This document shows, piece after piece, positions 11,924 to 14,274 of a stretch of DNA of 64,000 nucleotides. Numbering within the stretch: position 1 is the first letter of the stretch; each line of letters starts with the position of its first letter. Below the pieces are notes generated by a model. The model was not told the DNA's origin. It saw nothing but the letters and a program-made list of their open reading frames with translations, and made no database searches. The stretch covers positions 83,080,001 to 83,144,000 of the forward strand of contig OX597822.1 of the NCBI GenBank assembly GCA_951406725.2. The letters are read 5' to 3'. The position numbers were made by a program, and so were the translations under genes. Source of the DNA: Octopus vulgaris. Taxonomy: Eukaryota.

Positions 11924-12634
11924 CAGAAAATATACATGGCTGTCTGTTTGTCTGTTTGTCTGTATATATGTATGTCTGTCTATGTATGTATGTTCAAATA
12001 CAATCGATATGAATTGCAATGCACTTTTAATAGATTGTAAAACAGAATTAAGTTGGTTCAACATTGAAACACGTTTTGTACAAGAGGCAGGAATCTTCCC
12101 ATATACTTCAAAACGATTTTGTCTCCTAACATCTCATATCCATATCTTCTTCTGAGTAAAGTTCTACAATCGTCTAGACAACTTCAATTAATCAAGATTG
12201 GACTTACTTCAAAGATTCTTATTTTCAAGATTTTTCTTATTATTTTCGGTTGTTTTTTTCTATCTTTTGCTAATCACAATGTAAATTGTAATTGTTAACC
12301 AGCTGGTGATTGCTGATATACATATACATACATACATACATACATACATACATACATACATATATATATATATATATATATATATATATATATATATATA
12401 TATATATATATATATATATATATATATATATATATATATATATATAAAATTTATAAAAATATGGTAAAGTAAAAGAATTCACTTTACCACACACCGAACT
12501 TTTCCGAAATAGCAGCCAAAAACTTGGCTATTTCTTCAACTGCAAATAAAAGTCTCCAGACAATGCATACTCAGAAAAATAACTCACATAGGAATAAGGG
12601 AAAAACAATGAAAGATCACATCCATATACGATAC

Positions 12635-12694
12635 CCGAGGACAGTCTGTTTCTGGATTTGTGGGTAAAACGCCACTTTTCTTTCATCAGCTCAG
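12635..12694 (-). ncRNA. Type I hammerhead ribozyme
   Basis: CTGAG-CTGATGA-AAGAAAAGTGGCGTTTTACCCACAAATCCA-GAAAC-AGACT-GTC-CTCGG: intact core, stem I CTGAG/CTCGG, GUC site. Confidence 0.75.
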
Positions 12695-13493
12695 AGATTT
12701 CTTTTGATTTAGATTTGAAAATACTAAGAATCAAACATACCCGTCCGATATCTGTAACATCGGACAAACTATGCCAGACATCCAGTACTAGCGAATCCAA
12801 AAATACGAATGAGATCTATTATTCTCCCTGTCCGCCCACGTGAGTCATAGAGCATTCCATTTCTACAGAGGTAAAAACTGCAGTTTAAATTCTTGGAGAG
12901 AAAGTATTATATTGTTATGAGAAAATGGGGGTCGAATCAATTAATTATTAATAAATTCGACCAAGCAGTATTCGGTATGTAAAGACCATTTACGGTATAT
13001 TTGAAGTATTAATTTATAAAAATATGGTAAAGTAAAAGAATTCACTTTACCACACACCGAACTTTTCCGAAATAGCAGCCAAAAACTTGGCTATTTCTTC
13101 AACTGCAAATAAAATTTCGGAAAAGTTCGGAGTGTGGTAAAGTGAATTCTTTTACTTTACCATATTTTTATAAATTAATACTTCAAATATACCGTAAATG
13201 GTCTTTACTATACCGAATACTGCTTGGTCGAATTTATTAATAATTAATTGATTCGACCCCCATTTTCTCATAACAATATAATACTTTCTCTCCAAGAATT
13301 TAAACTGCAGTTTTTACCTCTGTAGAAATGGAATGCTCTATGACTCACGTGGGCGGACAGGGAGAATAATAGATCTCATTCGTATTTTTGGATTCGCTAG
13401 TACTGGATGTCTGGCATAGTTTGTCCGATGTTACAGATATCGGACGGGTATGTTTGATTCTTAGTATTTTCAAATCTAAATCAAAAGAAATCT

Positions 13494-13553
13494 CTGAGCT
13501 GATGAAGGAAAAGTGGCGTTTTACCTACAAATCCAGAAACAGACTGTCCTCGG
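13494..13553 (+). ncRNA. Type I hammerhead ribozyme
   Basis: CTGAG-CTGATGA-AGGA...TCCA-GAAAC-AGACT-GTC-CTCGG. Predicted cleavage after 13548. Stem III ACAG/CTGT has a 1-nt loop (dimer-type). Confidence 0.8.
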
Positions 13554-14274
13554 GTATCGTATATGGATGTGATCTTTCATTGTTTTTCCCTTATTCCTAT
13601 GTGAGTTATTTTTCTGAGTATGCATTGTCTGGAGACTTTTATTTGCAGTTGAAGAAATAGCCAAGTTTTTGGCTGCTATTTCGGAAAAGTTCGGTGTGTG
13701 GTAAAGTGAATTCTTTTACTTTACCATATTTTTATAAATTAATACTTCAAATATACCGTAAATGGTCTTTACATACCGAATACTGCTTGGTCGAATTTAT
13801 ATATATATATATATATATATATATACGTATATATGTGTATTTATGTATCTATTTATATATATATACGTATATATGTATATATGTATATATACTTATATAT
13901 ATATATACTTATATATGTATATATATATACATATATGTATACATGTTTATACATATATTTATGTATAGATTTATGTATATATATATGTATATATATATAT
14001 GGATATATATATATATATTATATATGTACATACATATGGATATGTATATATATAAATATATATATACAAACATACATACATATATATATATATATATATA
14101 TATACATATATATATATACATACATATATATATATATACAAACATACATACATACATACATATATATATATATATATATATATATATATATATATATATA
14201 TTCTTTTTATGTTTCAGCTTTGAGGCTGCAGCCATGTTGAGGTACCGACATATATATATATATAATATAAAATA

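Follow-up and report, generated by a model that had tools for sequence, protein, structure and literature searches.

How did a non-coding repeat bearing a self-cleaving RNA motif come to lie in the genome of Octopus vulgaris as a nearly perfect palindrome, and by which enzyme, from which form of RNA, was it copied? The question is raised by positions 12448–13800 of the window analysed here, a 64,000-nt stretch of contig OX597822.1 (assembly GCA_951406725.2, 83,080,001 to 83,144,000, forward strand), where two arms of one repeat stand head-to-head between (TA)n tracts. The left flank, a (TACA)n/(TA)n target, spans 12316–12447, and the (TA)n-rich right flank 13801–14201. Numbering the 563-nt unit from the base following the GUC triplet (13549, phase 1), we find that the left arm (12448–13114, RNA sense on the minus strand) comprises 667 nt, or 1.18 laps, from phase 89 to 192, and the right arm (13114–13800, plus strand) 687 nt, or 1.22 laps, from phase 130 to 252. 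They meet at 13113–13115 with a 1-nt overlap at 13114, and the outer end of each corresponds to the RNA 3' end, placed at initiation site A on the left and at site B on the right. The initial 104 nt of the left arm recur at a spacing of 563 nt, the spacing in the right arm is 564 nt, and the arms are identical at 683 of 687 positions (three substitutions and one inserted base). The original prediction had described just such a pair of near-identical arms of about 1.2 copies, starting and ending at different phases of a 563/564-nt unit within (TA)n, and on these points, as on the local hairpins it named, it is borne out. The longest reading frame of the unit, counted stop to stop, has 95 codons, with no notable ORF, and the monomer fold has z = -6.2 against 100 shuffles. 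We call this non-coding 563-nt repeat family A, and the window copy is one of its young insertions.

Each arm carries one type I hammerhead. In the right arm it occupies 13493–13554 (+), with helix I formed by 13493–13498 and 13549–13554, CUGAUGA at 13499–13505, GAAA at 13536–13539, GUC at 13546–13548 and a predicted cut before 13549; its left-arm counterpart lies at 12634–12695 (-). The earlier description of both motifs as intact holds for the three core boxes, which are present in both arms, but not for helix II, where each arm has one private change relative to the family majority. In the left arm a private G-to-A at 12681 turns a G-C pair into A·C and breaks it, and in the right arm a G-C pair has become G-U at 13526. 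Helix II opens with an A·A mismatch throughout family A, and the Rfam hammerhead models have no match in the window at the gathering score, nor at E values up to 10. Separate miRNA-like Rfam matches in the window correspond to the palindrome centre, fall below their gathering scores and were set aside.

Searches with two diverged fragments adjoining loci of Penelope-like elements (PLEs) led to a pair of sister families, family B of about 601 nt and family C of 578–591 nt, both colinear with family A over the whole unit at 57–64% identity. Despite this divergence, the core boxes stand at the same place in all three families; the first helix II pair is G-C in family B and A·C in family C. In a covariation comparison of 13 sequences, which stand for only three lineages and hence three independent states, 4 of the 12 hammerhead pairs are altered on both sides, and 94% of cells are paired, as against 14–44% in slid controls. 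Helix I is paired in 100% of cells with three of its six pairs altered on both sides, and helix II has one such pair. These compensatory changes indicate that the sister families keep the hammerhead. Helix III consists of two pairs and a self-complementary loop whose sequence differs among the three families; in each it cofolds as a dimer at -8 to -15 kcal/mol and does not fold as a monomer, a dimer-folding arrangement that most type I motifs of metazoans are described as having (PMC4209133). Within family A, hammerhead positions vary at 8 of 2165 cells (0.4%), compared with 464 of 23858 (1.9%) elsewhere. Each repeat unit therefore has the boxes, helices I–III and compensatory changes of a type I hammerhead, with a non-canonical first pair in helix II. 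An axolotl motif with a weak first helix II pair cleaves well as a dimer (PMC7229834), but among frog retrozymes only one of nine predicted dimers cleaved in vitro (bioRxiv 10.64898/2026.07.22.740005). On these features of sequence and predicted fold, we consider the hammerhead quite likely to be active.

With the motif model, each arm yields one hammerhead, in the sense direction, and the antisense strand of the unit yields none. The circular fold has z = -5.5 to -7.6 across the three families and is much stronger in sense than in antisense. A viroid-like replicon would have ribozymes in both polarities or another sign of RNA-to-RNA replication; we found neither, and the term replicon-like, which had been applied to this element, is dropped.

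Across the 2.8 Gb genome, family A makes 178 exact passes over the cleavage site, which together with the frame lengths and core boxes upholds the prediction of a non-coding, multi-copy, hammerhead-bearing unit. A 21-mer at the main 3' end has 481 exact matches, a figure that overstates the family because some are fragments carried in another repeat; a fair estimate is a few hundred loci. We fetched 90 loci, 60 picked by full-length similarity and 30 by a 63-nt query, of which 55 are distinct. In 18 of the 55, an arm carries two to three complete same-strand hammerheads, and these loci could be sources of monomers. Such short tandem units with at least two consecutive complete hammerheads are absent from the window copy, where the single hammerheads of the two arms point in opposite directions and the predicted read-through RNA is a hairpin with 95% of its bases paired. 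For these reasons the window locus cannot release a monomer itself; it is a dead-end product and no source of circles. One subfamily with a 567-nt unit, including loci L016 and L017, consists of copies that are 100% alike.

Several by-products of the census are recorded here. An apparent 206-nt mini unit proved to be a rearranged family A fragment carried by a different multi-copy element at 10 of the 12 loci retrieved; at L214–L223 the mapped part of this 206-nt repeat is without a hammerhead, and the host element exceeds 1.1 kb and has shared flanks. A U2-type promoter was also considered and rejected: in 18 alignments, sequences upstream of U2 matched the units no better than shuffles did. 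A first look at family B (L071–L100) and family C (L101–L130) gave 2058 and 1761 candidates, respectively, many of them short head-to-head palindromes in (TA)n. At L052:6550-6975 and L069:1047-1102 there are further non-coding insertions with a hammerhead that belong to other families, one of them directly behind a PLE 3' end.

The insertions share a consistent geometry. Arms occur in both orientations in 37 of the 55 loci, always with the RNA 3' ends outward, and the remaining 18 are single-armed; among new loci retrieved with the short (63-nt) query, 12 of 17 are two-armed. Outer 3' ends fall in site A (phases 188–222) or site B (phases 250–297) in 71 of 88 cases, although the two sites make up 15% of the unit, and one end of each kind is found in 20 of the 35 plain two-arm loci against 10.2 in shuffles (p = 1e-5), with the caveat that the borders of A and B, on which both counts depend, were drawn after the data were seen. 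The set of 35 excludes L012, for its inverted flanks, and L008, for a third piece. Both sites are AU-rich points running straight into TA, and TA stands at both ends in 31 of the 35 loci. The arms overlap centrally by 0–6 nt in 22 of 36 loci; the longest reach 3.4–3.6 laps, and in the less biased sample the mean arm length is 287 nt. In the window, sites A and B follow the hairpins GAAATAGC..GCTATTTC and TGGTAAAGT..ACTTTACCA within a module (13645–13800, +) that is kept in sequence and fold across the three families and is likely to be the region of reverse transcriptase binding and initiation.

PLE insertions are known to show partial tandems, an inverted arm and a one-sided tail (PMC8557442, PMC3846280), and family A shows what would be expected of a Penelope-like passenger: a head-to-head inverted arm, a partial tandem, a one-ended tail and a microsatellite target. 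EN+ Neptune-type PLEs offer the closest match, with partial tandems, an inverted 5'-truncated arm, a one-ended tail, a (TA)n bias and internal initiation downstream of the hammerhead; their tail is 30–40 nt long, whereas that of the unit here is 60–100 nt with several sub-sites, and the unit differs further in having no ORF and in its multi-lap arms (PMC8557442, PMC3846280, PMC11167929). In assays with AT-rich DNA, the purified protein of an anole PLE has been shown to cut each strand and extend it, initiating at two positions inside the RNA that delimit the tail (PMC11167929).

A candidate enzyme is resident in the same genome. One PLE has an intact 781-aa open frame with RVT_1, GIY-YIG and a CxxxxCxxC linker, and linkers of this kind have been tied to microsatellite targeting in Neptune elements (PMC8557442). 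Our GIY-YIG search gave 6136 candidates, 150 of which were scored; many share this frame. Insertions of this element lie in (TA)n and terminate at either of two 3' positions separated by 36 nt; L056 and window 59544–61174 hold inverted copies, each of which combines one end of each kind. At the second of these loci, two inverted arms derived from the non-coding 3' region of the 781-aa PLE stand in (TA)n, and the 36-nt tail is present on one arm only. In its family (L051–L067) there is also an overlapping upstream frame, at least 479 codons long in L054, without a Pfam match. No canonical hammerhead was detected in the 781-aa PLE family. Its 3' junction agrees with that of the unit at 10 of 15 bases, a level that 5 of 563 unit positions reach, and is at most a weak hint of a shared junction.

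From these observations, the element is very probably of the retrozyme type with a PLE footprint. Our main reading, to which we assign a probability of about 0.7, is that it is a non-autonomous retrozyme copied in trans by a Penelope-like RT/GIY-YIG protein from a circular monomer RNA. Source loci with two hammerheads would be transcribed and the RNA cut, probably via a dimeric helix III, after which the monomer would be ligated into a circle. The protein, presumably Penelope-like, would cut both strands of a (TA)n tract, the target seen at the insertions. Each DNA 3' end would then prime reverse transcription at an AU-rich internal site where the arms are seen to end, usually with one side using site A and the other site B; the segment between the two sites would correspond to the Penelope tail. 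Copying would cross the cleavage site, as the arms do, and may exceed three laps; finally, the far ends of the cDNAs would be joined, mostly at the 0–6 nt overlaps seen at the junctions, into a head-to-head palindrome. In its most specific form—a dimeric Penelope-like protein copying one hammerhead-made RNA circle from both cut (TA)n strands, from two fixed start sites, and rolling round the ring—we advance this account tentatively for each two-armed insertion.

Circular permutation of the arms is by itself no proof of a circular template, because PLEs form partial tandems and inverted arms. If the template were instead linear, either an uncut transcript of several units or single-unit RNAs linked by exact template jumping, the same enzyme would serve and no circles would be needed, a view that could draw on the partial tandems that PLEs themselves yield. 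In vitro, moreover, unprocessed RNA is the main substrate of the anole PLE protein, and hammerhead mutants are inserted normally (PMC11167929). The 178 passes bear directly on this choice, as they are exact across the cut site, unlike jumps with added bases. No arm starts at phase 1 (after a non-C base), and three start at phase 2, where 0.25–0.45 would be expected (p = 0.002–0.011, two of the three having been seen before testing); these starts are a hint that the 5' end was cut in some templates, which suits a linear template. With arms of at most 3.4–3.6 laps and the short average length in the less biased sample, a linear template also demands some step that regenerates multi-lap arrays.

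The alleles within insertions are less discriminating. At 16 diagnostic sites, mismatches number 4 of 395 between laps and 2 of 310 between arms, against 7422 of 17626 (42%) between loci; a single haplotype is common to the laps and arms of an insertion. We considered 13 candidate locus-private alleles as proof of a single circle and rejected them, since the tested pair was found at 20 places in 12 loci. With this recurrence, lap concordance shows one subfamily and not one molecule, and subfamily alleles account for it equally under a linear template.

Four public runs were compared as contigs, one of DNA and three guessed to be RNA; 20 runs contain the stretch, none recorded as RNA. Run X11, whose RNA label is a guess, yields a single 597-nt contig at depth 163 with no unlike flank attached. 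Its pieces cover 13210–13417 and 13390–13772, the joint stepping back 563, and with 4 inserted bases the contig forms a closed cycle of a 567-nt unit plus a 30-nt terminal overlap. All eight listed substitutions occur together in L016 and L017 only among the 55 loci. The predicted junction of unit end to start is seen in this closed contig, in one of the three guessed-RNA runs; the contigs do not separate a circle from a tandem transcript, since a tandem-locus transcript would close the contig equally, and the comparison includes no silent control stretch. In runs X2 and X9, by contrast, the repeat is represented by an incomplete copy at low depth, flanked by TA. The X2 contig on 13630–13748 (depth 2.6) bears an A>G cluster (7 listed for the run) that would fit A-to-I editing of palindromic copies. 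That such edits had been written into the copies was rejected, as the 12 lap-shared alleles are unbiased, with A>G and T>C occurring three times each. The flankless X11 contig sits poorly with a linear template, if its guessed label is right. Taking read-through, multi-lap arms and fold together, we favour a circular template as the somewhat more probable source of most insertions and regard a linear one as unlikely.

A separate question is the origin of the second arm. It could come from fold-back self-priming on the first cDNA or an antisense template and not from a second target-primed reaction, a model already proposed for head-to-head Penelope copies with a one-sided tail (Arkhipova et al. 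2013, PMC3846280). The single haplotype common to both arms would follow, and in 11 of 35 loci the inner ends are separated by no more than 45 nt, compared with 6.2 in shuffles (p = 0.03). In the other 24, however, they are more than 45 nt apart. Simple fold-back, furthermore, cannot give loci where neither arm is contained in the other, and the 12 of 35 that have this form, the window copy included, argue against it. Both outer ends also use the preferred AU-rich sites joining TA, and we judge self-priming distinctly unlikely, keeping two target-primed reactions as the preferred origin of the arms.

An improbable alternative is that the unit is the solo pseudo-LTR (pLTR) of an autonomous PLE outside the families sampled and the copies are ordinary 5'-truncated PLEs. 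Type I hammerheads do occur in pLTRs (PMC4209133), among 57 frog retrozyme families, 24 have a match among repeats already described, chiefly the termini of PLEs (bioRxiv 10.64898/2026.07.22.740005), and the 150 GIY-YIG candidates scored are a part of 6136. Against this, arms that exceed one unit continue into a further copy of it, up to 3.6 laps, and the whole unit is colinear in three families. By tblastn, no match to PLE proteins adjoins a unit in a set of 150 retrieved loci, five of which had matches, all in separate insertions. A check proposed at the outset, whether copies continue into an RT/GIY-YIG ORF as in an ordinary pLTR, accordingly turned up no contiguous case. A profile of the three units across 40 PLE loci likewise found separate insertions only, and PLE-like matches near GIY-YIG loci L038 and L062, first considered as pLTRs, are separate sister-family insertions. 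In 18 comparisons, the unit resembles the 3' regions of three resident PLE families no better than shuffles do (lowest 1/40), and no sequence shared with the pLTR or 3' end of an autonomous partner was found among these three. The proposal of reverse transcription in trans by a PLE enzyme is therefore matched by insertion geometry and not by homology to the three families; it is this geometry that ties the unit to PLEs, and by analogy the partner is likely to be Penelope-like.

That the palindrome is an assembly fold-back is highly improbable: L012, on a small contig, also has inverted flanks and no DNA-run contig bridges 13114, the latter weighing neither way, but the window arms differ at four sites and in end phases and flanks, and 36 other loci have the same polarity and non-random end pairing. 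At L012 (contig C116, 1-2951) the two flanks are reverse complements at 98% over 321 nt, a possible assembly fold-back at that locus.

The class to which the element belongs, non-LTR retrozymes, is already known; family A is a new member with an informative insertion footprint. Circles of such retrozymes are documented for coral, mussel and axolotl, and mobilisation of these elements by PLEs has been proposed (Cervera and de la Pena 2020, PMC7229834). Like these metazoan elements, the unit is non-coding, low in GC and strongly self-paired as a monomer, has one type I hammerhead per unit and co-occurs with PLEs; its short palindromic helix III and weak first helix II pair recall the axolotl motifs (PMC7229834). 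It is longer, at 563–601 nt compared with 150–450 nt, and is found mostly as dispersed arms of one to three laps where metazoan retrozymes form long arrays; their cleavage and circles are demonstrated, whereas ours are predicted from sequence (PMC7229834). We found no description there of head-to-head two-armed (TA)n insertions with two initiation sites, and the words inverted, cephalopod and octopus are absent from its main text. Among vertebrate non-LTR retrozymes (Li, Clavereau and Pollet 2026, bioRxiv 10.64898/2026.07.22.740005), for which PLE mobilisation is also proposed, the unit lies within the range of 51–972 bp; their PLE link is drawn from co-occurrence and pLTR homology, whereas here it comes from insertion geometry, with no pLTR homology found. 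Non-autonomous Chlamys PLEs such as MRC1 are likewise non-coding PLE passengers with multi-copy head-to-tail insertions, but they have 3' sequence in common with an autonomous partner and are described as mostly without canonical hammerheads, unlike the unit here (PMC8557442). A largely open-access literature search returned no two-armed retrozyme insertions, and octopus or cephalopod combined with hammerhead, Penelope or retrozyme led to PMC8557442 only.

Two questions give these comparisons their interest. Copying of circles by Penelope-like enzymes has been proposed for animal retrozymes, so far without demonstration in the literature found, and that literature describes the origin of the inverted arm and one-sided tail of Penelope elements as unsettled. 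Family A joins Penelope marks, measurable start sites, a candidate expressed monomer matching the youngest subfamily and an intact candidate enzyme, and their presence in one genome makes both questions testable in vitro. If the circle-rolling reading were true, a single mechanism would account for three PLE features at once, namely partial tandem, inverted arm and one-sided tail, and the 567-nt circle and the 781-aa protein would be a pair for showing circle-templated retrotransposition in an animal.

Elsewhere in the window, a 195-nt insertion between (TA)n tracts at 55066–55261 contains a type I hammerhead-like motif (55140–55228, +) and is unrelated in sequence to the 563-nt family. A 5S rRNA-like sequence lies next to (TA)n at 19532–19634, and a tandem repeat of 184 bp occupies 21903–22507 in 3.3 copies.
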